A stretch of DNA of 64,000 nucleotides, taken from Dictyostelium discoideum. Taxonomy: Eukaryota. The stretch's first letter is position 1. Every line of letters begins with the position of its first letter. The stretch lies in NCBI GenBank assembly GCA_000004695.1, contig CM000151.3, positions 5,984,001 through 6,048,000 of the forward strand. Reading direction: 5' to 3'. Positions 1 to 32,653 of the stretch are shown piece by piece. The position numbers and the translations under genes were made by a program. The notes under the pieces are model-generated. The model was given only the letters and a program-made list of their open reading frames with translations. It searched no databases and had not been told where the DNA came from.

Positions 1-5
1 AGTAG

Positions 6-503
6 TATTCTTTAACTGGAAGTAGATTAGCTGCTGCCATTGGAATTGATCGATACACTTCACAACATGATATAAAATTAATATTGGCGAAAAAGAAAAC
101 CCCATTCTTTAGTGACTACTGTAAAAAGGCAATGGGACATGGAAAACACCAAGAACCAAAAGCAAGAGAATTTTATTTTAATGAATTGGAGACTTCAATT
201 ATCGAAAAGGGTATCTTTCCATTGCCAGGCGACAAAAGAATTGGATGTTCTCCTGATAGGGTAATTTACACAACAGTACCTGGTAAAGATGGAGTTTTAC
301 AGCGTGAAGGAGTTATTGAAATTAAATGTCCACTATCTGCCACGAACTTCAGTGGCCTAAAGAATGGTAGAAAACCTGATGCCTTAGCTAATGCTCAGAA
401 AATACCTCTAGATTACATTCCACAAATATTTGCAAACATGGCATGTACTGGGGCACAATGGTGTGATTATATATGTTGGGTTCCAGGTGGTATACTTTTG
501 TAG
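6..503 (+). CDS. YqaJ-like viral-recombinase/PD-(D/E)XK exonuclease domain protein, 5'-partial (open from nt 6; window edge, probable upstream exon)
   Basis: In-frame translation from nt 6 is YSLTGSRLAAAIGIDRY...GCSPDRV...GVIEIKCP...IPLDYIPQIFANMACTGAQWCDYICWVP. This matches the YqaJ/lambda-exo family motifs (iTaSxxaai.G, SPDG, ExK-CP, IPxxYxxQvQxQMxvTG..cDf). No ATG start is present: the track ORF 84..503 starts at TTG. All three frames are closed before nt 6, and nt 1-5 (agtag) could be an intron acceptor. Codon usage is GC-richer (GGC, CGT, GCC, CTA) than surrounding host genes. Confidence 0.5.
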   Translation, partial: YSLTGSRLAAAIGIDRYTSQHDIKLILAKKKTPFFSDYCKKAMGHGKHQEPKAREFYFNELETSIIEKGIFPLPGDKRIGCSPDRVIYTTVPGKDGVLQREGVIEIKCPLSATNFSGLKNGRKPDALANAQKIPLDYIPQIFANMACTGAQWCDYICWVPGGILL

Positions 504-699
504 AAGGGTATTCTTTGATACAAATGTATGGAAATTTATTTATTCGTTATCAAAATTATTTATAGATACACCTTTAAATGAAATACCTTTAAAGAATGAA
601 AAAACATTAATAATAAATACATTACTCTTACAGAAACTTAAAGTTTTAAATCCACACCTAAATATTCATGTACGAACTAAATTATCAAAAAAAATAATA

Positions 700-1125
700 A
701 AAAATAAAAAAAATAATTTCTAATGGCTTATAATAATAATTCTTTTATTTTAAAATAATAAAAAATAGAAAAAGTTTTAAAAAAAAATAATAAAAAAAAA
801 AATTCTAATGGCTTTTATAAAGATTATTTTAAAATTGAAAAAAATAAAAAAATTTAAATTTGTAAACTGATTAATGTTACACTATTAATGTCTTCGAAAT
901 ATCTATTGAATTTTCTAAAGATATTTGAAGGTTTCAGAGAAACAGTTTTTTAGGAATAATTAATGATTTTTTCTAATGGTTTTTCTAATGATTTTCAGTA
1001 TAATGATTTTTAAGATAATAAAAAATTGATTTTTTTTTGGGGTTTTGGGGAAAAGATATTTATTGGAGAATATTTCCTAGTTTCTTTATAATCATTTTAC
1101 AAAAAAAAATTTTCTAACGGTTTGA
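700..1125. repeat. Dispersed array of motif (A)TTCTAATGGYTT (about 5 copies near 717, 808, 974, 986, 1113), plus two degenerate ~45-bp direct units beginning GGGGTTTTGGGG.../GGGGTTTAGGTG...
   Basis: Read directly from the sequence. The motif copies are each embedded in A/T-rich spacer downstream of the YqaJ ORF. Confidence 0.4.
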
Positions 1126-1631
1126 TTATAATCATCATGGGGTTTAGGTGAAAAGAAATTTATTAGGGAATGTTTTGTTTTTCAATTCATTTTCAAAAAT
1201 ATATAAATAATGGTTAATGTAAATTTTTGTAAGGTACCAAGAGGAAAGAATGGAGAAAATGTTAAAGTATGTCTATTCATATAGTTAAAAAAAAATATAA
1301 ATTTATTAAATATAAATATAAATTAACATCATTTTTTTCTTATTTTTTTTATAGGTTCTTAATAATGATTATTTGACAATCATACAGTTTAAAATTAAAA
1401 AATTGTTTTAAACCATCACTTTTTTTGAACACATGAAAATAAATAAGAAATAAAAATAAAAAGATAAAAAAAGATTTTTTTTTTTTTTTTTATTTTATAA
1501 TTATTCTTGTCGTCAGTATTGTTACTATAATTAATCCCATGAGTTTTTTTTATTATTATTTTTAATTCTTTTATATTTGAGATGATTATTATTAATTAAA
1601 TGACTTTGAGTTTTTTTTTTTATTTTTCTAT

Positions 1632-1805
1632 GCCCAAAATTACCATATTAATTTCGGCAGCCATATTAATTTCAGCCTAAAATAGTTGGTCTGTGCATGC
1701 CAAAATAATATGGCTGCTGAAATTAATATGGTATTACTAGCAGACATAAGTCCCATGCCAAAACTATCATATTAATTTCAGCAGCCATATTAATTTTGGC
1801 ATGGG
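1632..1805. repeat. Structured repeat cluster: three ~45-bp units in forward / inverted / forward orientation, each containing two copies of CCATATTAATTTC and flanked by CATGCCAAAA / TTTTGGCATG arms
   Basis: Unit 1 is 1632-1678 (gcccaaaattaccatattaatttcggcagccatattaatttcagcc). Unit 2 is 1696-1738 and is its reverse complement (catgccaaaataatatggctgctgaaattaatatggta). Unit 3 is 1755-1805 (catgccaaaactatcatattaatttcagcagccatattaattttggcatg). The 13-mer CCATATTAATTTC occurs about 6 times in both orientations. Confidence 0.7.
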
Positions 1806-2057
1806 ACATTCCATCGATTTAAATTTTTCTAAAGTTTTTTTATTTTTTTATTTAATTAATTATTTATTTTTTTATCTTTGTAAAGCAATGACTGATTTTG
1901 ATATTAGTGATTCAGAAGAAAAAGATATTAGAAAAAATGATGTAAAAGTAAGAAAAAAAATTGAAAAAAAAATTAACACCAATGGTGCACCTGATGACCA
2001 ATTTGTCATTACATAAAAACAAAAATGAATAAATGGTGGCAACAATGTGTCCCTTAA

Positions 2058-2825
2058 AAGTATATTTTTGAAGAGTGGTCGCCACATATAATTCAAAAAA
2101 TCTTTGATAGAAATAAGGCCATTATTGATGCTGGTTTACAAAAATATACCGATACTAGAATTCTCTTTATTTTAGATGATATTATTGGTGAAGATAGTTT
2201 TAAAAACGATGAAGTTTTAAAAAATGTTTTTATTTTGGGTCGTCATTATCATGTTGGATTTATGATATTAACACAGTATGCTTATGCTCTTCATCCATTG
2301 GTTAGAGGTAACACTGATTATGTTTTAACCACACTTCAATCACAAAATCGTCAAAGGGAAGCCATTGCAAAGGATTATGCTGATATTGTTGATAGAAATG
2401 CATTTTATGAACTTTTGGATAAAAATACTACCGATAATCATCTATTGGTTATCGATTTATCAAAGCCAACCATTAATGTCGATGATGTTTTCTCTCGTTT
2501 CAAAGCTGATAATCCAGGGCCATTTAGGGTGGGATCAGAAAAATGCTGGGATAAACATGAAAAACAAATTCAAATGATATATAATAAAGTTAGATTGGAA
2601 ATGGGTTGGTATTCAGAAGAAGATCAAGAGATAAGAAAGAAAAAATTTAAAAAAAAACTTGAAAAACATGAAAAAAAAGAAAAAGAAGTTGAAGTAAATA
2701 TTGAAAAACTTCCAAAATCAATAGAGAAAAAAAATGAAAGTAATGAAGAAGACAATGAAAAAAATCAAATAAATTTTTTAATTTTAATTTTTTTTTTTTT
2801 TTTTTTTTTTATAATCTTTTATTGA
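2058..2825 (+). pseudogene. FtsK-HerA / poxvirus-A32-like DNA-packaging ATPase, C-terminal fragment (Walker B and sensor region present, Walker A region absent)
   Basis: Frame-3 translation after the stop at 2055-2057 gives ...RILFILDDIIGEDSFKNDEVLKNVFILGRHYHVGFMILTQYAYALHPLVRGNTDYV.... This carries the hhhhDD Walker B, the GRHxxxS...TQ sensor and the Arg/Asn-Tyr motifs typical of A32-like packaging ATPases of NCLDV, Polintons and virophages. No GxxGxGK(T/S) occurs in any frame between 1801 and 2057. Confidence 0.45.
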
Positions 2826-3189
2826 TTTCTTTAATGTTTGTTAAAAGTTTTTCTTGAGTTCCAAAAAATGTGAGATAAAATGGGACCCCAAAATTTGGAT
2901 CACCTCTAAATATAGAACTAACACCATTCCCAATGAGAAGTGTTAAACATACACCCATCGATAGCTGAAGGCTCGATGATAAAAGTAAATCATTAGTTGA
3001 TGTTTGATTGATTTTATATCGATAATCTCTCAATAAATCATTTTCCATTATAACATGTAAACTACTATCACCTTTCTTTGGTTCTAAAACATATTTATCG
3101 AATGATTCATCGAGTTTATGGCCAACATATGACCCAATTAATGCTTGTGCTAATCCATGAGAAATTGCTGTAATTACTTCATTAGCCAT
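2809..3189 (-). CDS. hypothetical protein, member 1 (3'-most) of a compact collinear minus-strand ORF cluster
   Basis: ORF of 126 aa (MANEVITAISHGLAQALIGSY...). It starts 8 nt downstream of the stop of the preceding ORF (tagaaaaaaaaATG). Composition is coding-like and GC-richer than host genes. No family recognised. Confidence 0.3.
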   Translation of the reverse strand: MANEVITAISHGLAQALIGSYVGHKLDESFDKYVLEPKKGDSSLHVIMENDLLRDYRYKINQTSTNDLLLSSSLQLSMGVCLTLLIGNGVSSIFRGDPNFGVPFYLTFFGTQEKLLTNIKEINKRL

Positions 3190-3197
3190 TTTTTTTT

Positions 3198-3524
3198 CTA
3201 AAGACCTGTTTTAATATTTGTTCCAATGGATGGTGGTTTTTCTATGTAAATTAGAATATGTTGTCCATGGGCTAACATTACTTCATATTGATTTTCCAAT
3301 GAATGATTGTTGTCGTGAATTTTTTTAACGCTTCTAACTATTAATGCATCACCCGATAAAGTGTGTAATTCATTTTCTCTAATCCACGATTTTGCTGTGG
3401 GATCTAAAGCAATTGTTTTTTTAACATGTGATTCAATTTTATCATGATGATGGTCGTCTGATATTGAAATGAATTGACTATAAATAATTCCAGCTGCTAT
3501 TCCTCCTAATAAATAATAGTTCAT
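3198..3524 (-). CDS. hypothetical protein with N-terminal hydrophobic segment, cluster member 2
   Basis: ORF of 108 aa (MNYYLLGGIAAGIIYSQF...HHHD...). Its ATG lies 4 nt after the stop of the 3529..3726 ORF (taaaaaaaATG). Confidence 0.3.
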   Translation of the reverse strand: MNYYLLGGIAAGIIYSQFISISDDHHHDKIESHVKKTIALDPTAKSWIRENELHTLSGDALIVRSVKKIHDNNHSLENQYEVMLAHGQHILIYIEKPPSIGTNIKTGL

Positions 3525-3528
3525 TTTT

Positions 3529-3726
3529 TTATTTCTTTTTATTTAAAATATCCTTTAGTTTTTCTTCATTTAATTGAATTTGAGATTTTATTTCTTCATC
3601 GGTCTCTTTTCTTTTTTGGGATCTTTCTCTGCTATTCACTTCATTGGTCATCCTAATGGTTTCAGCAATAGCAGCCACCGTTCTTAAAATAACTGGTGTA
3701 CGACCAATATCATACTTTATAACCAA
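3529..3726 (-). CDS. hypothetical small basic protein, cluster member 3
   Basis: ORF of 65 aa (MVIKYDIGRTPVILRTVAAIAETIRMTNE...). It sits immediately upstream of member 2. Confidence 0.25.
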   Translation of the reverse strand: MVIKYDIGRTPVILRTVAAIAETIRMTNEVNSRERSQKRKETDEEIKSQIQLNEEKLKDILNKKK

Positions 3727-3882
3727 CTCTTGGAATGTATCTTTAAAAAAATAAAACCTTAATTGGTTTTGTTTTATTTTGTGTAATAATCTTTATTTTT
3801 TTATTTTTTTTATTTATTTTTTTTTTATTTTTTTTATTTATTCTTATTTTTGCAATGATCTTTATTTTTTATTATTTTCTTT

Positions 3883-4230
3883 TTATTTTTCTTCTTTTTT
3901 TGTTGGGATATCTGTTCTTTTTCGTGTACCAGGAAAATTAAGATCCAAAATATTGATGGTAAAGAAATCTTGAATATTTTTATCTTGAACTAAATGATCC
4001 TCACCAATATAGTAGTTTAATACATCTCTGAATTGAAAAGGAGGTAAGGAACCATCTTCGTTAACTTTGAGTGATTGATAAAGTATTGATGCAGTTTTAT
4101 ACATTTCAAGTCTTTCTACTACTTCCTTGATACATTCTGCTGTACAATTTTTCCCAAATTCAAATTCCAATAAGTTATCATATTGAAAAAGGTTTTCAGT
4201 AAAATTTGGGTGGTGGTGGTTACGGTTCAT
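3883..4230 (-). CDS. hypothetical protein, cluster member 4
   Basis: ORF of 115 aa (MNRNHHHPNFTENLFQYDNLLEFEFGKNCTAECIKEVVERLEMYK...). Its sequence is not low-complexity. Confidence 0.3.
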   Translation of the reverse strand: MNRNHHHPNFTENLFQYDNLLEFEFGKNCTAECIKEVVERLEMYKTASILYQSLKVNEDGSLPPFQFRDVLNYYIGEDHLVQDKNIQDFFTINILDLNFPGTRKRTDIPTKKEEK

Positions 4231-4258
4231 TTTTTTTTCTCTGTGTCAAAAATGAAAA

Positions 4259-4525
4259 TTATTTGTGTGAATTAAAAATAAAAATAAAAACAAAAATATA
4301 AAAAAAAAAAAATAAAAAAAAAAAATTGAAAAAAAAGGTCAACCCATGAGGAGCCATATTCCCGAAAACAAAGTATACCCCATTCCCATTAAAATGATTA
4401 ACTCTGGGCCAGACACCATTGGCGTTTTTTCTAATGAACATAATATCGTTAAACCATTGCGTGTTTGGAGTTATAGAATTGTCGTTGATAATACCAACAT
4501 AGTGATGTGAGTTACAGGAATTCAC
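4259..4525 (-). CDS. hypothetical ORF, cluster member 5 (5'-most); C-terminal part runs into a poly-F/low-complexity tract and may be truncated or a pseudogene
   Basis: ORF MNSCNSHHYVGIINDNSITPNTQWFNDIMFIRKNANGVWPRVNHFNGNGVYFVFGNMAPHG..., on the same strand as and 28 bp from member 4. Confidence 0.2.
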   Translation of the reverse strand: MNSCNSHHYVGIINDNSITPNTQWFNDIMFIRKNANGVWPRVNHFNGNGVYFVFGNMAPHGLTFFFNFFFLFFFFYIFVFIFIFNSHK

Positions 4526-4845
4526 AAAAAAAAAAGGATCAATAAAATAATTTTTAATAAAATTTTCATTTGGAGATAGTTATTTATATGAAGTATAATA
4601 TAATAAAAATAAAAAAATAAAAAAAATTTATACAAAAATAAAATGGTGAGAAAAATATTAATGTTTTTGAGTAAATTAGGTAAAAATTAAAAAATAATTT
4701 TTTTTATTTATTATTTTTTTTTTTTAATTTACAAATTTATTTATTATTTATTTATAATTTCTCACTTAAAAAATTAAGTAGTCATTGTTATTATTATTTT
4801 TTTTATTTTTTTTTTATTTTTATTTATTATTTTTTTTATTTTTTT

Positions 4846-5271
4846 TTGTTTTTATTTATTTTTTTTTTTATTTTTTTTTTGCTGTATATCGGTAAAGCAT
4901 CCCATCAAGAAGGAAGGGGTTTGTACAACAGAGGTTACACAGATCTAACTGGTGGCTCAAGGAGATGGGGGAATCCAAATTCAGACCCACCAGAAATGGC
5001 AAATGCTGAAGTTTTAATGTATTATAGAGGTTTTGATGGTCCAGTTGCTGGTCATGCTGAGTGGTGGTTCCTTTCAGTATTTGGGTGTCCAGAAAATAGT
5101 TTCAACGAGGGTGGTTTAAGGACATCTGAACACAGTTATGGCGCAGGTCAATGGAATTTTTTCCATGCAAATGCTCCCCCAGTTAATGTTCGTCAATATA
5201 TTATAAATCAAGATCCATCCCCCGGTTTTTTTTTAGATTTCAAAACTATCCATCTGCTCCAAGTATTATAA
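4846..5271 (+). CDS. hypothetical protein (GC-richer ORF; possible upstream start or exon unclear, internal ATG at 4996)
   Basis: ORF ...GKASHQEGRGLYNRGYTDLTGGSRRWGNPNSDPPEMANAEVLMYYRGFDGPVAGHAEWWFLSVFGCPENSFNEGGLRTSEHSYGAGQWNFFHANAPPVNV.... It uses many GC-rich codons that are unusual for Dictyostelium. Confidence 0.3.
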   Translation: MFLFIFFFIFFLLYIGKASHQEGRGLYNRGYTDLTGGSRRWGNPNSDPPEMANAEVLMYYRGFDGPVAGHAEWWFLSVFGCPENSFNEGGLRTSEHSYGAGQWNFFHANAPPVNVRQYIINQDPSPGFFLDFKTIHLLQVL

Positions 5272-5348
5272 GAAGAATTGTTGAATGTGAAACTGAACGA
5301 TTACACGCTGAAGGTCTTTCAGTTAAAGTTCCTGGTCTTCAAAATCAA

Positions 5349-6095
5349 GTGGTACATTTTCAAAATCAAGTGGTAAATCTTCAAAATGCAAACGAACTAT
5401 TGACAAACTATAATGCTTATTTGGCTGCAGCTCTTCTTAATGCTATGCCTCAGATTCCAAATCTAGATGGTTTTCTACCAGTATACGGTCCTGGGTTGGA
5501 AGTTTCAAGTGAAGCTATTCGTAATTGGAATGAAGCAAGAAAAAATGGCGGTGGTGGTATTGGTGGTGGTATCGGTGGCGGTGGTATTGGTGGTATTGGT
5601 GGTATCGGTGGGGTAGATGATGGTAAAAAGGGTGATGGTAAAAGAGGTTCAGGTGGTGCGGATGGTGCACATGATGGTTGGTTAAAATCTGGCTGTATTT
5701 GTCCAGAAACTCCTCCTTGTCCAGTAGTAATTCCATGTCCAGAGCCAGTGGTTTGTAATATAGCAAAAATTCAAATTCAATTGAATTCAACCATAAAAAG
5801 TTTGGATGAATGCAAAAAACAAAAGGACCAAACCAATGATAACCTCAACGTCTGCAAGTCCCATAAAGATGAGACACAAGATTGGCTCACCGACTGTCAA
5901 AAAGAATATGTTAAACAAACAAGTCATTCATCCAAAGATGATACTCTAATTTCTCTCAGAAACTGCCAAGCCGAATACCAAAAAGAAACATTCAAAAAAG
6001 ATAAGCTCTGCCGTGGTTTGTCCAAACATATCATTGGTTATCTCGATTTCTGTGAAGATAAGGTAGAAAAGCTCAAACTCGCTAATTGTGAATAG
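5349..6095 (+). CDS. hypothetical Gly-rich (GGGIGGG repeats) and Cys-rich protein; frame is open upstream to about 5222, so it may be spliced or frameshifted to the 4846 ORF
   Basis: ORF MVHFQNQVVNLQ...GGGGIGGGIGGGGIGGIGGIGG...CICPETPPCPVVIPCPEPVVC...CQKEY...CQAEY.... It starts at GTG in the track. The same frame continues upstream (…RIVECETERLHAEGLSVKVPGLQNQ). Confidence 0.3.
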   Translation: MVHFQNQVVNLQNANELLTNYNAYLAAALLNAMPQIPNLDGFLPVYGPGLEVSSEAIRNWNEARKNGGGGIGGGIGGGGIGGIGGIGGVDDGKKGDGKRGSGGADGAHDGWLKSGCICPETPPCPVVIPCPEPVVCNIAKIQIQLNSTIKSLDECKKQKDQTNDNLNVCKSHKDETQDWLTDCQKEYVKQTSHSSKDDTLISLRNCQAEYQKETFKKDKLCRGLSKHIIGYLDFCEDKVEKLKLANCE

Positions 6096-6518
6096 TTTTC
6101 TCATTTTTAAAAAAAAAAAAAAACAAAAAAAAAAAAATCATATAATGGTTTCCTTTATGAAATCAATAAAAAAATTCTTTAAATAAAATTTTTAATCTTA
6201 TTTTAAAAAAATTCTTTTAATGAAATCCATTATTTTCATTTTTTATAATTTTATTGAACTTTATTGAAAATAATTAGATATTGTTATTTCCAATGGTTTT
6301 AGATTGATAACGGTATAGATGTGACCATTAAATAGAAAACTATTAAAAATTGAGCCAAAGAAAAATCAACGATTTTTAATGGTTGTTTAAAGATTTCCTA
6401 TAGAAAATTTAAAATGATTTTTTTAAAAATATTTCAAAACCAATGTCATAAAATAAAAATTCTCAATTACTAAATATAAACATGTATAGATCATTAGGTT
6501 TATTTTTAAAAAAAAACG

Positions 6519-6773
6519 ATGGGTGCCCGTCAAAAAAAAGAAATTGAAGCAGATCCTGAAAGGGTAAAATTAATAAAAATTAAAAAAACACAAAAAAGAT
6601 TGGCCGAACAAGAAGAAAGAAGAAGGTTGATGCAAGAAGAAAGTGAAAGAAGACGATTGCAAAGACTTAGAGAAAAACAAGAGCCAATTAGAACCTTTGC
6701 AACTGCACAAGAAGCTCAACGATATATACCCAAACCTGGTAACTTTGCACGTAAAAGAGGTGCTAGAAATTAA
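6519..6773 (+). CDS. small basic charged (K/R/E-rich) protein, hypothetical
   Basis: ATG-initiated 84-aa ORF MGARQKKEIEADPERVKLIKIKKTQKRLAEQEERRRLMQEESERRRLQRLREK.... It uses the typical Dictyostelium AAA/GAA-rich codons. Confidence 0.35.
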   Translation: MGARQKKEIEADPERVKLIKIKKTQKRLAEQEERRRLMQEESERRRLQRLREKQEPIRTFATAQEAQRYIPKPGNFARKRGARN

Positions 6774-6846
6774 AAAAGAAAAAAGAAAAATAATTGAAAG
6801 AAATAAAAAAAAAAAAATTAAAAATTAAAAAAAAAATAAACTACAT

Positions 6847-6900
6847 CTCTTATATAAGAGGTGGCAATAGATAATAAAAGTACAATTAGAATTATTTTTT
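6847..6900 (-). pseudogene. 5' fragment of the small Cys-rich secreted-protein gene (truncated copy)
   Basis: The reverse complement encodes MKKIILIVLLLSIATS..., matching the N-termini of the 10199..10444 and 13672..13920 ORFs. Similarity stops at 6850. Confidence 0.5.
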
Positions 6901-7776: not shown

Positions 7777-9401
7777 TAATTATTTATTTTTTATTATTTA
7801 TTTGTATTAATTTAATGAATTAATATTTTATTTATTCATTGCCAAATTAAATAAATAAAATTACATTTAGAGTTATAATTTAATATTAATATTAAAATGT
7901 TTTTTTTTAAACCTAATTTCAAGTGGGGTTAACTTTTTTTTTTTTCATTTTTTATATTTTATTTTTTAAGTTTATATGTTTCATGTAAAATCAAAAAGGG
8001 ATTTTTTAACCCCTAATTTCACCCTTGAAAAAAACACTTAATAAATTTAATAATATTTGGCAATAAAAATAAATAAAATGTATTCTTTGTTCATTAATTA
8101 ATAATATTTATGAAGTGCAATATTTAATTATGTGCTTTTTAAAATTTTGAGGGAAAAAATTAGACAATTTTAAAAAACTAAGTAAACTTAAAAAAATTAA
8201 GTAAACTTAAACTATTATATATATATTTTTTTTTTTTTTTTTTTTTTTTATTTTTTTTGATATTTAAATAAAAAATTTTGTTATTAAAAATATATCAAAC
8301 TATAATAATAATCAATATTTTAGATATTTAAAAATGTGTTTTGGGTAAATATTATTTAAAAAAAAAAAAAGAAAAAAAAAAAAAAAATTTTAATATTTAC
8401 AATTAAATAATATTTTTAGGGATGCTGATAAAATTGCAACAAAAGAAACTGTAAAATTGGTTGAAAAAATCATTGATGTTAAAAAAGAAGAATTTTTAAA
8501 AAATCAAAAAATTTTATCTGAATTTATGAATAAAGGATATGGATTAATATTAAAAAATGATTTCAAATGTTCAAGTATGGTAATGGGTATCGGAAGTAGT
8601 GGTTGTGGAAAATCAACAACTCTCAATTTGATGCATGGAAATAACTTTGTAACTGGAAAGGATTGTGGTGATGTTACTATGCAACTTTCAATACCAACTC
8701 CTTCTGTAAAATATCCAAATACTAAAGTAATTGATTGTGTTGGCTTTACTCCAAGTCTTTCAAGTTTTTGCAAATTAATTTTAATTTATTTCCAACGTGG
8801 ATTTTTTCCAGATTATTTTCTATATCCATCATCAAATGATAGAACTGAACAAATTGTCACACTCTATAGAATGATTAGAATGGATTATGTCAAAATAATG
8901 GTTGTCCCATTCTCTGCAAAAAACTATCATTCAAATATTGAATTAATAAAAGAAATTGACCCAACAATGTCAGAATCAGAGGTAGATACAAAGTCATTAA
9001 AAAAAGCTTTTAATAGTGATATGGTATCACATATTATTGAAAAATTGGCTGAAATTAAATTAAAAAATGATGAAACCCTTAAAGGAAAGGTTATAGTTGT
9101 TGAATCTCTTGATAAAGTTCCAGAAGTAATTGGTTCAATGAAAACAATGTTTTTAAATGAATTCTTTATTGGTGGTAAATTTATAGATTCAATAACCTAT
9201 GAACAATTTTGTGAAAATTCTTCAGATGATGATCCTCAATCAACAAAAATATTTTTGTATGGCCTTTTAGTTGATGCTATGAAAACTTTATCATCATTTG
9301 CCAAGTATGATAATAATGGCGTATTGATAGGAATCGAAGAACAAAAATTCTTAAAAGACAATTAAAATGGAATCAAAATAAATCCCAACAACAAATTACC
9401 A

Positions 9402-9437
<36 letters not shown>

Positions 9438-9568
9438 TTTAATTTTAGCTCAATCATTTTAAAAATATTAAAAAATTAAAAAAACTAAATGAATATTAGA
9501 AAATAAATCAATAAATAAATAAATTTTATGAAATAATAAAGTATTATAATTTAATATTATAGAATATG

Positions 9569-9599
<31 letters not shown>

Positions 9600-9990
9600 G
9601 TTCCTCTTTTATTTATTGAAGTATCAGATAATTATTAAACATATCTAAATATAACCTTTTCCAATGGGAATCATTCAGCTCGTTTGGTGGTTTAGGTCAA
9701 CTCAGAGAAAAAAAAAAATTTTATTTTTTAAATTTTATTTAATTTTTAAAAATTGTCTGCAAATTAGACTTTGGAAGATTTATTCAAAATTTTCTTTTTT
9801 TTTCAGATCAAAAATTTTATTTTGAATTTTGAAATTTAATTGGATTTTTGTTCAAGTAAAAGTAACTTATTTTATTCACTACCAATTTATATGTTATTGT
9901 GATAATCCTAAATAACAACAATTCATGAAAGAGAAAAAAAATTATTAAAAATAAAAATAAGTGCCTATCAGATAACTAATCAAAAAATTA
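6850..9990. repeat. Segmental duplication copy 1 (5'-truncated) of a ~3.5-kb tandem unit
   Basis: 6847-6900 matches the 5' end of the Cys-rich gene at 10375-10445. Spacer blocks (aaaggtgcacccatcttaaaaacaaaa..., gaattccattggttatttt, aaccatgtgcaatttagtgtgtgggtg) are shared with 10650-10980 and 14140-14410. The lsm6 segment is mostly deleted. The P-loop gene is intact. Confidence 0.7.
8334..9365 (+). CDS. P-loop GTPase-like protein (G1 GIGSSGCGKST, candidate G3 DCVG). Exons: 8334..8344 (ATGTGTTTTGG, tentative) and 8420..9365
   Basis: Exon 2 begins right after a ...tatttttag acceptor at 8419. A GTAAAT donor follows ATG TGT TTT GG at 8345. Both features are conserved in the pseudogene copy at about 12456/12544. 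The Walker A motif is in-frame. Confidence 0.5.
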
Positions 9991-11038: not shown

Positions 11039-11459
11039 CGATTAAAAAAAAAAATTATTTATTATTTCTTTTTTATTGGGCTATTAATATTTATTTTGGG
11101 AATTTAAAAAAAAAAATTTTAAAAAAAAAATAATAAAAAAAAAATTGGTTTCTATTCAAAGTAATACACATTCTCAATTCCTTTTATTAATAACAGTTAA
11201 AAAAACTTTAATATATGCAAAGCGATACACATTCGCAATTCCTTTTATTAATAACTGTTAAAAAAAAAACCATGCTATATTAATATATTATTATTATTTT
11301 AAAATAAAAATCAACATATAGTAATATTGAGTAATTAAAATAGCTGAAATAGTAGATTCACATAAAAAATTTATTTATAATCTCCACGCACACATACATA
11401 TATACCCATGTATAGCCACTCGCTTTTTATAAATAAATTAATAAATTAATATTGAAAAA

Positions 11460-11700
11460 ATGTCCACTACCACAGCCACCAGTAATACATCAAATAATAG
11501 TAATGCACAATTTAACTTTATTTAAAATGTTGATTGGAAGACCAGTCTTTGTTAAATTAACCAATGCTGTTTAATATAGGGGTATTTTGGAAGTAATATG
11601 AACATTATAATGGAACACATACTGAGGAATATACCTTTATGTGCAATTAAAAGCTAAATATGGTAAACTTGTGAAATAGCAAGTAGTGACGGTGGTAATT
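11460..11700 (+). pseudogene. lsm6 pseudogene (copy-2 version of the LSm6 first exon, disrupted)
   Basis: It opens ATGTCCACTACCACAGCCACCAGTAATACATCAAATAATAGTAATGCACAATTTAACTTTATTTAA, with a premature stop. Downstream matches to lsm6 exon 1 (…ggtattttggaagtaatatgaacatt…aaatatggtaaacttgtgaaatagcaagt) contain indels. Confidence 0.55.
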
Positions 11701-11915
11701 ATCTTTTGATTTTAGCAGTTGATGGTGTGTCATAATTATTCCAATATTGATCTAATTAATTTTTTAATCTTCGAGAATTTAATTCAAATTCAAATTCAAA
11801 AAAAGAATTCATTTTTTATTTTATTTATAAATTGAGAATTTAAATAAATTCTAATTACATTTTGAGTTTTAGTATAATTTTTTTCAATATTATTATTAGT
11901 GACCAATTAAAATAT

Positions 11916-11959
<44 letters not shown>

Positions 11960-12468
11960 CAAATTTTTTTTTTGTATCAAATTATATATTTGTATTAATT
12001 AAATGAATTCATTTTTTTATTAATTTGTTGAGAATTTAAATTAATTATTTTTTGAGTTATAATTAAATTTTTTTATTTATTATTAAAAACTTAATAAATT
12101 TAATAATATTTGTTAACTTAAATATCATTACTAAAACTAATAAATTGGTTTTACCTAAGGAAACAAAAATTTTACAAGATGTTTCCTTTTTTTTTTTAAT
12201 ACATTTGATGTAAAATCATGGTTTTTTTTTTTTTTTTTTTAAACCTAATATTTTAATTATTTTTAAGTTAACAAATATTATTAAATTTATTAAGTCCTTT
12301 TTAAAAAATTAAATAAACTTAAACTATTATAATAATTTTTTTTATTTTTATTTGGCTTTAAAATTAAAATTTGTTATTTAAATTAAAAATTATTATTATT
12401 AAAAATACACGAACAATAAAAAATAATATAAACAAATTTTAGATTTAAAAAAATGTGTTTTGGATAAT

Positions 12469-12516
<48 letters not shown>

Positions 12517-12544
12517 AAAATATTAATATTTAATAATATTTTTA

Positions 12545-13150
12545 GGGATGCTGATAAGATTGCGACTAATGAAACTGATAAATTGGTTACAAAAATCATT
12601 GATGTAAAAAAAGAAGAATTTTTAAAATATCAAAATATTCTACAGAATTTATGAACAGAGGATTTCTATTAATTTCAAAAAATGATTTCAAATGTTTAAG
12701 TATGGTAATGGGAGTTGGAAATAGTGGTTGTGGTAAATCAACAACTCTTTCATTTGATACATGGAAATAAATTTTACTCCAAATCTTTCAAATTTTTGTA
12801 AATTAATTTTAATTTTTCTCCACCGTGGATTTTTTCCAGATTATTTTCTATATCCATCATCAAATGTTAGAATTGAACAAATTTCCACTCTATATAGAAT
12901 GGTTAGAATGGATTATGTCAAAATCATGGTTGTCCCATTCTCTGCAAATAATTATTATTCAAATATGGAATTTATAAAAGAATTGGACTCAACAATTCCA
13001 GAATTAGTATATAAAAAATCAGTAAAAAAAGCTAGAAGTGATATGATATCACATATTTATGAAGAATGATGTAGTTCCAGAAGTAATTAACCTATGATAA
13101 AAATGGAGTATTGGCTGGAATTGATGAACTAAGATGCTTAAAAGACAATT
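12545..13150 (+). pseudogene. P-loop GTPase-like pseudogene (copy-2 version of the 8334..9365 gene)
   Basis: It is collinear with 8420-9365. A stop follows the Walker A region (…GVGNSGCGKSTTLSFDTWK*). It carries several deletions relative to the intact gene, and an expanded (AAT)n tract follows it. Confidence 0.6.
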
Positions 13151-13183
13151 AAACATTTTATTTAAACAGCAATTAATATTAAA

Positions 13184-13222
<39 letters not shown>

Positions 13223-13231
13223 TATAATAAC

Positions 13232-13278
<47 letters not shown>

Positions 13279-13300
13279 TAATAATAATAATAATAATAAT
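13184..13300. repeat. (AAT)n microsatellite, expanded in copy 2 of the tandem unit (the copy-1 counterpart at 9404-9436 is about 33 bp)
   Basis: Read directly from the sequence. Confidence 0.9.
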
Positions 13301-13350
13301 ATAATCCAATTAATTAATTTTAGCTCAATTATTTCAAAAAAATAAATTAA

Positions 13351-13385
<35 letters not shown>

Positions 13386-13671
13386 ATATTCAACATTCCC
13401 TTTAATTTTTTAAAGTATCACATAATTATGAATAAATTTTGTTTTTAAAAATTAGGTAAAAAAAACACAGAAAAATAAATTAAAAAATTAAATTATATGA
13501 TAAACTTATTTTATTGTTAATGGATTTAATAATTAAATAAATAAATTAAAAAGGGGGGGGAGAAGGGGTTGTTGTTGACTATTATAATTTAGATAATTGG
13601 ATAAATTGAATTTTGAGTATTGTTGGAAAGAACATATAAATTAAAATCTAATTATCAATTGATTTCTATGT

Positions 13672-18777: not shown

Positions 18778-19528
18778 GTAATGTTTTTAATTAATTTTTT
18801 TAAAAAAAATTTTAAATAAAAAAGGATAGGAAATATATTATTTTATTATATTTAATTTAAAATTTTTTTTTTTTAAAAAAATTAAATTAAAACAATACCC
18901 AAAAAAGGAGAGTGAGTATATATACAGGCTCAATTTAATTTTATTATTTTATCATTATCAAAATGAAAATATAAAAATTTTAAAAATTAGTTGTTACAAC
19001 GGTTTAAACAAACAACAGTTAAAAGTATTAAATTAAATTAAATGAATTTGTGATTAACTCAAAGATCCCATTCTTTTAAGAAATTTTTTTTCACAAACAT
19101 TGATTACAAGAATAATCTTAGAGTAGTTGGCTTTTGTGATATTTTTTTTTATTTTATTTTATTTTATTTTTTTTTTTAAATTTTTTTTTTTCTTTTTGAT
19201 TAGAAAAAAAAGGGGCGCTTTTACACCAGATAAACTGCTTAAAATATTAAACAATACCGCCAACACCAAAAAAAAAAAAATAAAAAAAAAAAAAATAAAA
19301 AAAAAAAAAAGAAAAAAAATAAAAAGCAATTATGTTAATAGAAATTGGGATTAAAATTTCCAAAATATCTTTATTTGAATAAAAAATTAATAATAAAGAA
19401 AATAATAATTTTTTTGATTTGATCAGATTTAATTTTTTTTTTTTTTTTTAAAAATATTTTATTTAAATTTACAAGGTTCTTATTATTTGTTTTTATTATC
19501 GTTTTTGTTTTTTTTTTATTCTCCATTT

Positions 19529-19569
<41 letters not shown>

Positions 19570-19762
19570 CATAAAAAATAAAAATAAAATTAAAACAGGG
19601 AAATGATGGATTTGTTGAAATTAATTGAAGGTGTAGAGATTTTATTATTATTATTATTATTATAACAGATAATCATTTTGTTTTATAATAATTAAATTGA
19701 TAAAACCAAAATAGATTTTTTTTTTTTTTTTTTTTTCTCCTTCCAAGGAACAAAAAAAAAAA

Positions 19763-21562
19763 TTATCTTCTTACCGTTGAAGGGTTTTGATTAATTCTAC
19801 CATCAAAACCAATATTTCTGTTTGGAGTATTTGGACCATTTGATGAGGTTGGACCACCATTTGTTCTAAGTTGAGATGTTGAAAATGCACCATTACTACT
19901 ACTACTGTTACCACTATTTCCATTTAAATTCCTTCTTTGAGGATTATTAATATTTGATTGTGGTTGTGGTTGTGGTTGTGGTTGTGGTTGTGGTTGTGGT
20001 TGTGGTTGTGGTTGAGGTACTTGTCTAGATGGTGAAAATGGATCTCTTACACCACCATGACTTGTTTGTTGTGTTGAAATTGGTGGAATTCTGGTTTGTT
20101 GAGTTGATGGTGGTTGTGGTTGTTGTTGTAATTGATTTCTATTATTTGGAAAATTTTTAAAGAAACCTGGACTTAATTTGTCAACTAAATCATGAAGATA
20201 TTTTAAATCAATTAATGCTTGATTTAATTGAGAATCCTTTTCATTGATTTGAAGTGATTTATCAACATCTACAATTTCATATTGTTCTTGAAGTTTTTTA
20301 TAGTTTAAAGCGAAATCGTTGAGTTGTTTTTTACGTTCTAAATTACAAGTTGCCAATGATTGATCCTTTGTAATGATGATATCGTTGAGTTGTTGAATCT
20401 TTTCATTGAGTTGTTGAATTTGTCTATCGGTGGTTTTTGTGAGATCATTGATTTGTTTATCCCTATATTCAATGTACATTTTAGATTTATTGGTCAATTG
20501 ATCGAATTGTTGTTGTTGTTGAGAGACCTTTAATTTCAAATCGTCACATTCCTTTATCAACTCTTTGGTTTTTTGATTCTTTTCCTTTAGTTCCAATGAA
20601 AGTTCATTGGATTGTTGAATTGACTGATCGTAATCCAATTTCAATTGATTCATATCCTGAGAGATCACAGAGATTTGATTAATCTCTTGTTTGTATTTTT
20701 GTTCTTGGTTTGACAATTGGGTGTAGGCCGATTGAAGTTTTTGATACTCTTGATCCCATTCATCAATGGTTGAATTGCATTCCTCCAATGAACGATTCAT
20801 TTGTTTGACTTGATTTTGTAATTGTCTAATTTGATCATCCAATCTGGATTTCTCCTCTGCAAATGAGGATGAACTAAACTCAAAGCTTTCAATTGCATTG
20901 TCACGATCATTCTGTATCATTTGTTTCTCTCTCTCAACTCTATTGAGATCACTAAAAAGTTGATTCTCTGATTCTATCAATTTCTTTTTCTCTTTCTCTA
21001 ATCTAGTGATGGTTTTATTTTGTTGTTCAATGGTTTTCAAATTATCACTAATCTCTTCCTCTTGTAAATAAATCTTATCAGTCATTTCATCTAATCTCTT
21101 TTTAATTATTGAATCATTTTCATCAATAAAATATCCTGATGATGTTGTTGCTGCTGTTGTTGATTTTAAATTATTAGTTGTTGATTGTTTTTGTTGTTGA
21201 TTTTCATTTGTTGTTGTTGTTGTTGTTGTTGTTGTTGGTGGTGAAGATGGTTGTTGATTTAAACCATAACTTCTTTGTGTAGTGGTGGTTGTATAATTAT
21301 TGGTTGTTGTTGGTGGCGGTGGTTGTCCACTAGCTTGAGTGTTTGAAAATTTATAGTTTGATTTTTCCTTTAATAATGATTTATAAAATGCTAATTGTCT
21401 TTCCATACCTAATATATATTCTTCACTTCTATTATATGGTGTTTGTTGTGATGATGAGGAAGATGATGATGGAGGTGGTATATTTTCAACATCAACACCA
21501 TTATGATGTTCATTTTGATTTTGATGTTCATTTTGATTTTGATGTTGATTTTGGTGTTGATA

Positions 21563-29716: not shown

Positions 29717-30114
29717 TATGTATATATTAATAAAAATAAATGTGTTTTGTATTTTTAAAAAAAAAAAAAAATTTTAAAAATTAAAAATCTTCACCACAAA
29801 AAAAAAAAAAAAAAAAGAAAAAAATATAAAAAAAAAAAAATAAAATTAAAAAAAAAAAAAAAATAAAATAAAATAAAATTATTTTTTATTTTTTTCCCAA
29901 CGATTGTAGGAAATTTGTGTGAGGAAGAAACCTGGTGCCTCTTTAAAAAACAACAAAAATAAAAAAAAAAAAAAAAAAAAAAAAAAATAAAAATTAAATA
30001 ATAATAATGCGAGAGACAATAGTTAACTTTGTTGGATTATCTTATTAAGTTTTTCACAAAAATGTGTGTGTGCATACACCATTGTGATAAATCTAGACTT
30101 AAATATTGTCTCAC

Positions 30115-30162
<48 letters not shown>

Positions 30163-30514
30163 AGATATTAAAAAAAAAAAAAAAAAAAAATAATAGAATA
30201 ATAATAATAATATTCTAAAAATAAATTAATTTTTTGAAATTTATTTAATTTATAGCTTTTTTTTGAAAAAAAAAAAAAAAAAAAAAAAAATATGTTTTAA
30301 TTTGGCAGAATAGAATAGAACAGAACGGAAGACATGAAAATGAGCTCTTTTCAGACAAAGAATTTAATTTCAATTTTTTTATTTATTTTTAATTTTTTTT
30401 TTAATTGAATTTAAAAAATATTAATTAATTTCATTTTTTTATTTTTTTTTTTATTTTTTTTTTTATGTGTCATTAAATTAAATAATAATAAATTTCTCTC
30501 TCTAAATCTATAAA

Positions 30515-30687
30515 ATGGAAAAAACCACCCCAACTCAATATGATGTAAAGGTTCAATATAATAATTCAATATTAAACTATGCCATTGATCACAGTGACCA
30601 ACTTACTGATATCCAAAAAGAATTAATTCAATGTATGTTTTAATTAATTTATTTATTTTTTTTATTATTTTATTTTTCATTTTTATT

Positions 30688-30728
<41 letters not shown>

Positions 30729-31313
30729 GTATGTTTAGTTACCAAAGAAAATATTGAAAGACATATTATGTTGACTCAAGCTGAACAATGTTCATTCTTT
30801 AAACTTTTAATCCAAGTTTTAAATGCAAAGAAAACTATTGATATTGGTGTTTTTACAGGTCTTTCATCATTAACTGCAGCATTGGCAATGGGTGACGAAG
30901 GTAGAGTTGTTGCATGTGATGTTTCAACTGATTACACCCAACATGCACTTAAATTCTGGGCTAAAGCAGGTGTTGATCATAAAATCAATTTAAAGATTCA
31001 ACCAGCTTCAAAAACATTACAAGAATTAATTGACCAAGGTGAAGAGAATACTTATGATTTTGTTTTCATTGATGCTGATAAAACTGGATATGACACTTAT
31101 TATGAATTATCACTTAAATTAATTAGAAAAGGTGGAATCATTGCCATTGATAATGTTTTACAACATGGTCGTGTTGCAGATCCAAATGCCAATGTAGAAC
31201 CAAATTTAGTTGCAATTCGTGCACTCAATGATAAAATCTTAGCTGATAAACGTGTTACTAAAACAATGTTACCAATTGCTGATGGTATCACTTTAGTTAC
31301 TAAAATTAATTAA
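30515..31313 (+). CDS. omt5: Caffeoyl-CoA O-methyltransferase-like class I SAM-dependent O-methyltransferase, tandem copy 1. Exons: 30515..30632 and 30739..31313 (230 aa)
   Basis: Exon 1 is MEKTTPTQYDVKVQYNNSILNYAIDHSDQLTDIQKELIQ. Exon 2 is FTKENIERHIMLTQAEQCSFFKLLIQVLNAKKTIDIGVFTGLSSLTAALAM...FIDADKTGYDTYYE...GGIIAIDNVLQHGRV.... It is collinear with plant CCoAOMT (MEIGVYTGYSLLATALAL…FVDADKDNY…GGLIGYDNTLWNGSV). The symbol is assigned from the tandem pair and a predicted length of 230 vs 231 aa, and is moderately confident. Confidence 0.85.
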
Positions 31314-31496
31314 ATAGAATAATAAAAATAAAAAAAATAAAAATAAAACAAATTGTTTTAATTAAAAATAATAATACCCACAACCAAAATTTTCATACGA
31401 AATTTCAAATTATGATCATCTGATCTTTACTTTTTTTTTTTTTTTACGTTACTTTATTTTTTATTTTGAGACCAAGGTTGCACCAAAATTCTAAAG

Positions 31497-31534
<38 letters not shown>

Positions 31535-31748
31535 TTTTTTTATTTTTGACTGCTAACATTTGTTCAGCCTAAAAATTGAATTATTAGAATACGTTACTTT
31601 AGATATTATTATTTTAATAAAAAAAAAAAATTTAATGGGAACGTTACTAGCTCCATTAAATTATAATTTTTTTTTATAAAATCAGATTTCTAATTTTGTG
31701 AAAGGTAATGATAACGTTGTAGAATTCTTTTATTCTTTTATTTTATTT

Positions 31749-31882: not shown

Positions 31883-32653
31883 ATGGAACAAAAAACCGCC
31901 CCAACTCAATATGAAGTAAAAGTACAATATAATAATTCAATTTTAAATTATGCCATTGATCACAGTGACCAACTTACTGATATCCAAAAAGAATTAATTC
32001 AATGTAAGTTTTTTAATTAATTTTTTCATTTTTTTGTATATTAATTAACTTTTTTTTTTTTTTTTAATATATATTTAGTTACCAAAGAAAATATTGAAAG
32101 ACATATTATGTTGACTCAAGCTGAACAATGTTCATTCTTTAAACTTTTAATCCAAGTTTTAAATGCAAAGAAAACTATTGATATTGGTGTTTTTACAGGT
32201 CTTTCATCATTAACTGCAGCATTGGCAATGGGTGACGAAGGTAGAGTTGTTGCATGTGATGTTTCAACCGAATATACTCAACATGCACTTAAATTCTGGG
32301 CTAAAGCAGGTGTTGATCATAAAATCAATTTAAAGATTCAACCAGCTTCAAAAACATTACAAGAATTAATTGACCAAGGTGAAGAGAATACTTATGATTT
32401 TGTTTTCATTGATGCTGATAAAACTGGATATGACACTTATTATGAATTATCACTTAAATTAATTAGAAAAGGTGGAATCATTGCCATTGATAATGTTTTA
32501 CAACATGGTCGTGTTGCAGATCCTAATGCCAATGTAGAACCAAATTTAGTTGCAATTCGTGCACTCAATGATAAAATCTTAGCTGATAAACGTGTTACTA
32601 AATCATTACTCCCAATTGCTGATGGTATCACTTTAATTACTAAAATTAATTAA
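31883..32653 (+). CDS. omt6: Caffeoyl-CoA O-methyltransferase-like O-methyltransferase, tandem copy 2. Exons: 31883..32003 and 32079..32653 (231 aa)
   Basis: Exon 2 is nearly identical to copy 1, with differences such as STEYTQ vs STDYTQ and KSLLPIADGITLITKIN vs KTMLPIADGITLVTKIN. Exon 1 is MEQKTAPTQYEV..., the donor is GTAAGT, and the intron and flanks have diverged. Confidence 0.85.

Follow-up and report, generated by a model that had tools for sequence, protein, structure and literature searches.

A probable degraded provirus of a small double-stranded DNA virus related to the Nucleocytoviricota on chromosome 2 of Dictyostelium discoideum AX4

Why should five open reading frames (ORFs) lie almost end to end on one strand of a Dictyostelium chromosome? 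The question is raised by a 64,000-nucleotide stretch of chromosome 2 of Dictyostelium discoideum AX4 (CM000151.3, positions 5,984,001 to 6,048,000; hereafter, the window), where minus-strand ORFs occupy 4525–4259 (ORF1), 4230–3883 (ORF2), 3726–3529 (ORF3), 3524–3198 (ORF4) and 3189–2809 (ORF5). These positions had been given in a preliminary description of the DNA, and an ORF listing reproduced all five, with stop-to-start gaps of exactly 28, 156, 4 and 8 bp as reported there. The start codons are, from ORF1 to ORF5, GTG, ATG, TTG, ATG and ATG. Nor do the ORFs look like products of chance, as the 1.9 kb concerned (28% GC) holds three ATG ORFs of at least 100 codons where 0.008 are expected, and none of 2000 shuffles reached three. 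We conclude that positions 1 to ~6890 of the window are very probably a degraded provirus of a small double-stranded DNA virus related to the Nucleocytoviricota, integrated in the genomes of group-4 Dictyostelium.

The reading rests on copies of the same element in related genomes. An exact-sequence look-up placed the window proteins in clusters with several members per genome in D. discoideum (including a wild isolate), D. cf. discoideum, D. citrinum and D. dimigraforme. Across these genomes the copies are near-identical and their gene order is conserved; D. cf. discoideum has at least five, and two pairs that were aligned directly are 97.5–99.4% identical. As a reference, a composite of 35,955 bp was assembled from three loci that overlap, and the reverse-complemented window was aligned to it. 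The composite starts short of the element's left end (the copy in locus L017 is truncated inside the 154-aa gene); the right end, set by loss of homology between copies, falls ~1.2 kb before the composite's own end. Window 1–~6890 is collinear with this multicopy element, at least 36 kb long in the wild Dictyostelium assemblies: 4143–3745 corresponds to composite 80–575 (with 3900–3745 at 425–575), 3746–2015 to 18798–20589, 1988–1809 to 20782–20957, and 1374–1 to 29981–31734 (with 1374–1173 at 29981–30186). This mapping indicates that the AX4 copy has lost 18.2 kb, from just past the 115-aa gene into the middle of the 261-aa gene. In total, the damage comprises three deletions (18.2 kb, 9.0 kb and 192 bp), an inversion of ~0.5 kb, a frameshift and a nonsense codon; both arms are kept and ~27 kb of the interior is gone. 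The collinear homology to multicopy viral elements also bears out the earlier proposal that the ORFs are viral, element-encoded and belong with the YqaJ and ATPase genes beside them.

Read in the direction of the window's minus strand, and with (−) marking genes on the opposite strand, an intact copy begins with genes for an 84/101-aa protein (−), a ~515-aa protein (−), the 115-aa family (+), and proteins of 154 (−), 111, 804 (−) and 129 residues. The capsid protein (414), VLTF3 (470, −) and proteins of 364, 164 (−), ~617, ~463 (−) and 249 residues come next, then a RuvC-like protein (190) and proteins of 124, 187, 261, 118 and 126 residues. Beyond these lie the A32 ATPase (362, −), proteins of 133 and 362 (−) residues, a D5-like protein (848, −), a GRF zinc-finger protein (156) and proteins of 230, 443 and 566 (−) residues, and finally YqaJ (270, −), a 398-aa protein (−), a deoxynucleoside kinase (263) and a 61-aa transmembrane ORF. 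Spacers below 20 bp and overlaps are common throughout the intact copies, confirming that tight same-strand packing is a property of the element, and a D. dimigraforme gene model (P0016) joins the 261-aa protein with ORF4 and ORF5. By inspection, the regions upstream of 38 element ORFs share no promoter motif beyond A/T homopolymers.

Viral ancestry is indicated by the 414-aa protein encoded beside VLTF3, which in an intact copy matches Pfam Capsid_N (3.5e-5). A profile search of 1.84 billion representative proteins recovered 212 full-length relatives of ~400–430 aa. Among 80 members of this family, Pfam matches were to Capsid_N (43/80), Capsid_NCLDV (8/80) and Pox_Rif (4/80), and a profile built from them matched, in the PDB, the capsid proteins of Emiliania huxleyi virus 201 (EhV-201; 1.5e-33), Paramecium bursaria chlorella virus 1 (PBCV-1) in several variants (6e-33 to 1.7e-13), Singapore grouper iridovirus (SGIV; 2e-9), faustovirus (5e-7), as well as African swine fever virus (ASFV p72; 2e-4), with vaccinia D13 matched weakly (0.017). 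An AlphaFold2 model from an alignment of three sequences was unusable (predicted local distance difference test score, pLDDT, 36); redone with 80 distant homologues, it reached a pLDDT of 90.2 and a predicted template-modelling (pTM) score of 0.89. When the model was searched with Foldseek, the best 40 matches in BFVD and the best 50 in the PDB were all Nucleocytoviricota major capsid proteins (MCPs) or D13, with template-modelling (TM) scores of 0.55–0.78 (mostly 0.6–0.78); phage and virophage capsid proteins first appeared at rank 41 (virophage from 42) with TM ~0.5. Family profile and predicted fold agree that the intact copies encode a giant-virus-type double jelly-roll capsid protein.

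Capsid relatives are also found on metagenomic contigs of 33.7, 35.3, 37.0 and 38.8 kb, and a scan of IMG/VR with the capsid protein gave no match. One contig with a distant capsid homologue (23% identity), ENA ERZ25072490 ctg193411 (35,344 bp, 38% GC), also carries a DUF5906 helicase together with a primase large subunit of eukaryote type. The sole IMG/VR match of the A32 ATPase, at 27% identity, is on UViG_3300036668_000212 (5.4 kb, 27% GC), and it is the closest ATPase of this type that we found outside Dictyostelium. Both contigs are candidates for free-living relatives.

Other hallmark genes accompany the capsid gene in intact copies. The 470-aa VLTF3 matches Pfam Pox_VLTF3 at 1.7e-5 (25.0 bits, the gathering threshold being 25) and the packaging ATPase matches Pox_A32 at 3.3e-7. 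A protein of 822–848 aa carries a D5-like superfamily 3 (SF3) helicase (DUF5906, 4.2e-15; VapE-like, 3.4e-6), its primase part being putative, and the deoxynucleoside kinase has a Pfam match at 2.5e-11. YqaJ matches its Pfam family at 5.9e-25; the earlier description was right that the adjacent YqaJ and ATPase genes are real, but both are pseudogenes in the window copy. Two further proteins are candidates from conserved motifs: the 190-aa protein is RuvC-like, with GIDPG and IEKQ motifs conserved in this element and in a second lineage (described below), and the 187-aa protein and its homologue in that lineage (39% identical) show F-x-LTINT, GGRVHSHT and YI(K/R)K in the order of HUH endonuclease motifs I–III. 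A PDB match of the basic N-terminal region of the 187-aa protein to histone H2B was rejected as spurious. We likewise do not claim the 398-aa protein beside YqaJ as an archaeo-eukaryotic primase, for which an LDIDF motif, an SLHLH motif and a C-terminal cysteine cluster were noted by eye, without Pfam or PHROG support.

Several observations weigh against the proviral reading. The capsid, VLTF3 and helicase genes lie outside the window, which is linked to them by its collinearity with homologous copies from other genomes. For this lineage, whose left end lies outside the composite, neither terminal repeats nor target-site duplications nor an integrase came to light. The 190-aa protein has no match in the Pfam scan, and its PDB match to the Schizosaccharomyces pombe resolvase Ydc2 is weak (E 0.16–0.18) and was best in one search only. 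The HUH candidate shows three motifs, of which motif II is HSH instead of the canonical HUH (H-hydrophobic-H), with no support from Pfam, PHROG or the PDB. No homologue of ORF2, ORF4, ORF5 or the 261-aa protein was detected beyond Dictyostelium (for ORF5, a word-indexed homology search returned Dictyostelium proteins only), and the five ORFs and the 261-aa protein drew no match in Pfam and PHROG scans. Their roles are consequently argued from position and hydrophobicity.

A first alternative is that the remnant is a fragment of a truly giant endogenous genome (over 100 kb) of the Megaviricetes or Pokkesviricetes. The element's left end lies beyond the copies covered, virus-like genes extend over ~85 kb in D. 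dimigraforme and over the final ~76 kb of the D. cf. discoideum contig JBTAPH010000039.1, and a related lineage sits on a 58-kb contig. The long regions hold repeats, however, with two capsid genes 55 kb apart and several copies of the 115-aa and YqaJ genes, and the right end is fixed by the loss of homology between copies. Furthermore, Pfam hits on the ~36-kb composite and its flanks include no DNA polymerase (family B) or multisubunit RNA polymerase, those of the fetched copies include no mRNA-capping enzyme or ribonucleotide reductase, and the capsid relatives occur on contigs of 34–39 kb. A giant genome is therefore improbable.

Less probable still is a block from a Polinton/Maverick or polinton-like virus (PLV) of the Preplasmiviricota, as the preliminary description had suggested from the dense packing. 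That packing is indeed also typical of PLVs, as are a double jelly-roll capsid, an A32-type ATPase, an SF3 helicase and multicopy integration. The suggestion does not survive the gene content: no protein-primed DNA polymerase (pPolB), rve integrase or adenain protease is among the Pfam hits of the fetched copies (~36 kb of intact element), and the top capsid matches, by profile and by model, are exclusively to Nucleocytoviricota MCPs, with virophage capsids following in the ranks given above. VLTF3 is present, and VLTF2 and VLTF3 are undetected outside the Nucleocytoviricota and treated as diagnostic of the phylum (Yutin et al. 2024, PMC11253617).

If the window holds a provirus, what are the five ORFs? 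In annotated AX4 chromosome 2, ORF5 is DDB_G0275479, ORF4 is DDB_G0275723 and ORF2 is DDB_G0275721, while ORF1 and ORF3 correspond to no such annotated gene. ORF5 (2809–3189, minus strand) is an intact 126-aa gene adjoining the ATPase. ORF4 (3198–3524, minus strand; 108 aa) is shorter than the 118-aa form by an in-frame deletion of 10 codons. ORF3 represents the final 71 codons of a gene for 260/261 aa (fragment at 3529–3744, minus strand) and has no usable start codon; in tblastn it corresponds to residues 194–264 of the ORF in locus L001 (stop-to-stop numbering), with 100% identity to a D. cf. discoideum copy. The ~18.2-kb deletion, among whose losses are the capsid, VLTF3 and RuvC-like genes, has its breakpoint at the fragment's upstream edge (3745/3746), and the adjacency of ORF2 and ORF3 is its junction. 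ORF2 (3883–4230, minus strand) is an intact 115-aa gene of a paralogous family, with one or two members in each element's left arm and further AX4 remnants in DDB_G0268772 and DDB_G0291087. Small 'CxxEC' proteins in another locus (L013) were considered as members of this family and rejected, as jackhmmer gave no link.

ORF1 has yet another origin. Compared with every other copy, the segment 4335–4880 is inverted, and with it a divergent promoter region and the initial ~100 codons of the ~515-aa gene: by blastn, window 4335–4853 aligns forward with 9438–9956 of locus L002, and the flanks (3873–4326 and 4879–5408) align in reverse. ORF1 (4525–4259) consists of residues ~36–101 of the ~515-aa protein within the inverted piece (by tblastn, residues 36–101 at 4534–4337), read on into a poly-T tract. 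Thus, the operon-like array of five genes in the preliminary description stands in part: the adjacency of ORF3, ORF4 and ORF5 is native, with the same order and spacers of 6–18 bp in related copies, while ORF1 and ORF3 are gene fragments and only three whole genes remain. Because only that adjacency is native, the array of five is partly an artefact of decay, a deletion and an inversion having placed two gene fragments beside three real genes.

We propose the following sequence of events. The virus would have integrated in a Dictyostelium genome, and the AX4 copy would then have lost its interior and kept both arms. The five ORFs would be what was left around the ATPase, namely ORF2 from the left arm, ORF1 as an inverted fragment, ORF3 as a 3′ stump, and ORF4 and ORF5 intact. 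In the virus, ORF4 and ORF5 sit with the 261-aa gene in a co-oriented block that converges on the packaging ATPase, the 4–18 bp spacers being conserved in intact copies. Given spacers this short, expression is predicted to proceed from promoters embedded in the upstream ORF or by run-through transcripts, probably made by host RNA polymerase II with VLTF3. The AX4 remnant would be incapable of functioning as a virus.

To assess selection, we calculated ratios of non-synonymous to synonymous substitution rates (dN/dS) between the D. dimigraforme and D. cf. discoideum lineages, at dS of 0.3–0.5. The ratio is 0.04–0.06 for the 126-aa gene (ORF5; dS ~0.45–0.48 against the D. dimigraforme copy), 0.12–0.14 for the 118-aa gene (ORF4) and 0.10 for the 261-aa gene, compared with 0.09 for the ATPase, which indicates that the three are bona fide coding genes under strong purifying selection in the virus. 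The 115-aa family (ORF2), with 0.5–1.0 (0.8–1.0 among close copies), is weakly constrained. ORF4 has an N-terminal hydrophobic anchor (residues 4–22) and ORF5 one strong central hydrophobic segment (residues 67–94); each is present once per element, always abutting the packaging ATPase. In mriyaviruses, small Nucleocytoviricota relatives, the small transmembrane proteins Mriya_48 and Mriya_50 are conserved in the structural region (PMC11253617). From the anchors, the ATPase adjacency and this parallel, we tentatively suggest that ORF4 and ORF5 might well be virion inner-membrane or morphogenesis proteins; for these two, the preliminary description's idea of structural or minor proteins is thus still a reasonable guess. 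The 261-aa protein, basic and of low complexity in its N-terminal half, is probably a core or scaffold component.

The open state of DDB_G0275721, DDB_G0275723 and DDB_G0275479 could also mean that they are virus-derived genes domesticated by the host. All three are annotated genes, and their reading frames have stayed open next to broken ATPase, YqaJ, 261-aa and 515-aa genes. The window copies, however, differ from the D. cf. discoideum proviruses by 0–4 substitutions (dS of at most 0.03), and these three genes by 2–4 (dS ~0.01–0.03); at such near-zero divergence the remnant is young and open ORFs are uninformative on host function. ORF4 already has its 10-codon deletion, the 115-aa family evolves under the weak constraint noted above, and the fragment is surrounded by deletions typical of decay, all of which leave domestication little chance. 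That the locus is a nuclear copy of mitochondrial DNA, also AT-rich and compact in dictyostelids, or a set of host orphan genes closely spaced by chance, as ORFs lacking homologues outside Dictyostelium might suggest, is negligible, given that all of window 1–6890 matches multicopy nuclear elements, which carry genes for capsid, VLTF3 and A32 and lie on nuclear contigs of megabase scale. The earlier claim that the ORFs are richer in GC than host genes failed as well: their GC of 0.29–0.30 and third-position GC (GC3) of 0.17–0.23 (0.33 for ORF1) fall inside the range of ten host genes from the same window (GC 0.24–0.39, GC3 0.10–0.40).

The rest of the remnant shows the same erosion. At its start, the YqaJ-like (PD-(D/E)XK) exonuclease gene (6–687, plus strand) is cut by the window boundary and is a pseudogene or truncated, with a frameshift near 490: tblastn with the intact 270-aa copy places residues 44–206 at 6–494 and residues 206–271 at 490–687 in another frame, and the DNA is 92% identical to composite 30529–31734. 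Filler of 434 bp (1375–1808) marks the site of the ~9.0-kb internal deletion, which removed the 133-aa, 362-aa, D5-helicase, GRF zinc-finger, 230-aa, 443-aa and 566-aa genes. Within the filler, a unit of ~40 nt (CCAAAAYTAYCATATTAATTTCRGCAGCCATATTAATTT) occurs three times in alternating orientation at 1634–1807, forming a palindromic cluster; the motif is absent from the 19 fetched element loci and from all other sites in the window, and the cluster may be a small foldback insert or one resembling a miniature inverted-repeat transposable element. The A32-like DNA-packaging ATPase pseudogene (1888–2825, plus strand) is convergent with ORF5. A 192-bp deletion (composite 20590–20781) takes out its Walker A region, and a GAA to TAA change creates an in-frame stop at ...QQCVP*KYIFEEW; by tblastn, residues 124–329 of the intact 362–365-aa ATPase lie at 2016–2630 (96% identity) and the N-terminal 33 residues at 1888–1986.

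Beyond the inversion lies the body of the ~515-aa gene (4891–6092, plus strand; residues ~106–515), rich in glycine and cysteine, without a match in Pfam and PHROG scans and cut off from its own 5′ end by the inversion. It is followed by DDB_G0275483 (6519–6773, plus strand), which encodes an 84-aa basic protein of the left arm, matched in other copies by tblastn and blastn. Homology to other copies stops at ~6888, and no element protein matches deeper into the window. Some 1.5 kb past this end, a 302-aa ORF (8457–9365, plus strand; TTG start in the ORF list) has a P-loop motif, GIGSSGCGKST, and no homologue in any element copy. Further on, near-identical 181-aa ORFs at 30768–31313 and 32108–32653 (plus strand) lie 1.3 kb apart and differ by a handful of residues; the pair looks like a recent tandem duplication of a host gene, methyltransferase-like by eye and unrelated to the viral remnant.

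AX4 is not alone in carrying eroded copies. A retrotransposon gene (RVT_1, RNase H and integrase zinc-finger domains) lies inside one D. cf. discoideum copy (L012 16861–19235 and L005 1–599), indicating that some copies are eroded by host transposons. Two other loci, L004 and L002, share with window 1–6890 the retention of left-arm genes (515-aa, 115-aa family) and right-arm genes (YqaJ), with the interior gone. In L004, the right arm also keeps the 398-aa and deoxynucleoside kinase genes; L002 is the AX4 chromosome 1 DDB_G0268772 locus in another strain, where YqaJ is joined to the 5′ portion of the 515-aa gene. That both arms are kept might point to deletion derivatives that can be mobilised in trans, or just to random decay. 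Elsewhere on AX4 chromosome 2, outside the window, DDB_G0277463 and DDB_G0277467 form another remnant, with a 69-aa fragment of the 129-aa gene and a 314-aa gene model in which the capsid protein's C-terminal third is fused with a portion of the 364-aa protein, from which it follows that AX4 has several scattered relics of the virus.

A second, divergent virus lineage is present in the same D. cf. discoideum assembly (GCA_054859205.1), on contig JBTAPH010000006.1 (57,978 bp; locus 8836–30068). Its capsid protein is 31% identical, in the same local order of 766-aa, 127-aa and capsid genes, and homologues of VLTF3 and of the RuvC-like, 124-aa, 187-aa, 364-aa and 617-aa proteins are encoded. It also carries four tandem paralogues of a fibre-like protein (11453–13560) and a gene model with a Phage_integrase domain (tyrosine recombinase). 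This short contig may represent an episome, or else an insertion that is unplaced. It is conceivable, though we regard it as doubtful, that the wild D. cf. discoideum and D. discoideum copies, in which ORFs are mostly open, are latent, replication-competent mriyavirus-like genomes integrating in many copies, with two-armed deletion derivatives like that of AX4 mobilisable or packageable in trans and the 58-kb lineage integrating by its tyrosine recombinase.

We know of no natural virus described for Dictyostelium, and full-text literature searches turned up neither an account of this element nor one of a DNA virus from any dictyostelid. The virus-like genes listed for D. discoideum in a 2016 survey are FNIP-repeat genes and a few others only. 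The likely (unconfirmed) source paper of the wild-isolate assemblies never mentions viruses, and in a 2025–26 preprint on mriyavirus-related endogenous regions in algae the word 'Amoebozoa' is absent. The kind of element, an endogenous one derived from a small relative of the Nucleocytoviricota, is known; the lineage and the host appear to be new. The AX4 locus itself is a relic, and its value is that it leads to the multicopy, near-intact proviruses of wild isolates and to the second lineage, in an organism that is a major model for host–pathogen biology. Replication-competent latent copies, if they exist, would represent the first known virus of social amoebae. If mriyavirus-like, the element would extend a recently defined class to dictyostelid hosts and offer integrated copies, in a genetically tractable system, for the study of integration, latency and giant-virus origins. 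The AX4 hypothetical genes DDB_G0275479, DDB_G0275723, DDB_G0275721 and DDB_G0275483 can be re-annotated as virus-derived, as can the remnants DDB_G0268772, DDB_G0291087, DDB_G0277463 and DDB_G0277467.

How does the element compare with known systems? Like the giant endogenous viral elements (GEVEs) and other insertions of nucleocytoplasmic large DNA viruses (NCLDVs) in Acanthamoeba (PMC5203793, PMC12210455) and Euglena (PMC12455990), it places Nucleocytoviricota-type hallmark genes in a protist chromosome, in copies eroded by deletions, rearrangements and transposon insertion. In contrast to these, it is far smaller, is without the giant-virus machinery for replication and transcription, and is present in many near-identical copies per genome, as are PLVs, virophages and transposons, instead of as a one-off insertion. 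With Polintons, Mavericks and PLVs it shares size class, multicopy integration, compact genes, a double jelly-roll capsid and an A32-family ATPase. It differs from them in having VLTF3 and no detected pPolB, rve integrase or adenain protease, and its capsid groups with the Nucleocytoviricota, and not with Polintons, virophages or adenovirus, in both sequence and structure.

The occurrence of capsid relatives on 34–39-kb contigs makes the element more like a mriyavirus than a Polinton. Mriyaviruses have genomes of 35–45 kb, encode no DNA or RNA polymerase and are predicted to replicate in the nucleus (PMC11253617). There are differences from the Mriyaviricetes (Yaravirus brasiliensis and the Pleurochrysis endemic viruses). 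All mriyaviruses encode an HUH rolling-circle endonuclease (PMC11253617), whereas that of the element is a motif-level candidate (HSH). The mriyavirus PDDEXK nuclease is not orthologous to NCLDV YqaJ (PMC11253617), whereas the element's own is a genuine Pfam YqaJ. Further differences are the presence of a deoxynucleoside kinase and of a separate, putative primase, and integration in many host copies, mriyaviruses being described from virions and metagenomes. The similarities are nevertheless extensive: a small genome (at least 36 kb for the element), a short NCLDV-type double jelly-roll capsid protein of ~410 aa, an A32 ATPase, VLTF3, an SF3 helicase within a large multidomain protein, a PD-(D/E)XK nuclease, a candidate RuvC-like protein, small transmembrane proteins encoded in the structural region, the lack of any detected DNA or RNA polymerase and, as for yaravirus, an amoebozoan host. 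By gene content, the element thus resembles the mriyaviruses (Yaraviridae, 'Gamadviridae'), of which it is a candidate member; their description fits it much better than that of Polintons, PLVs or giant viruses.

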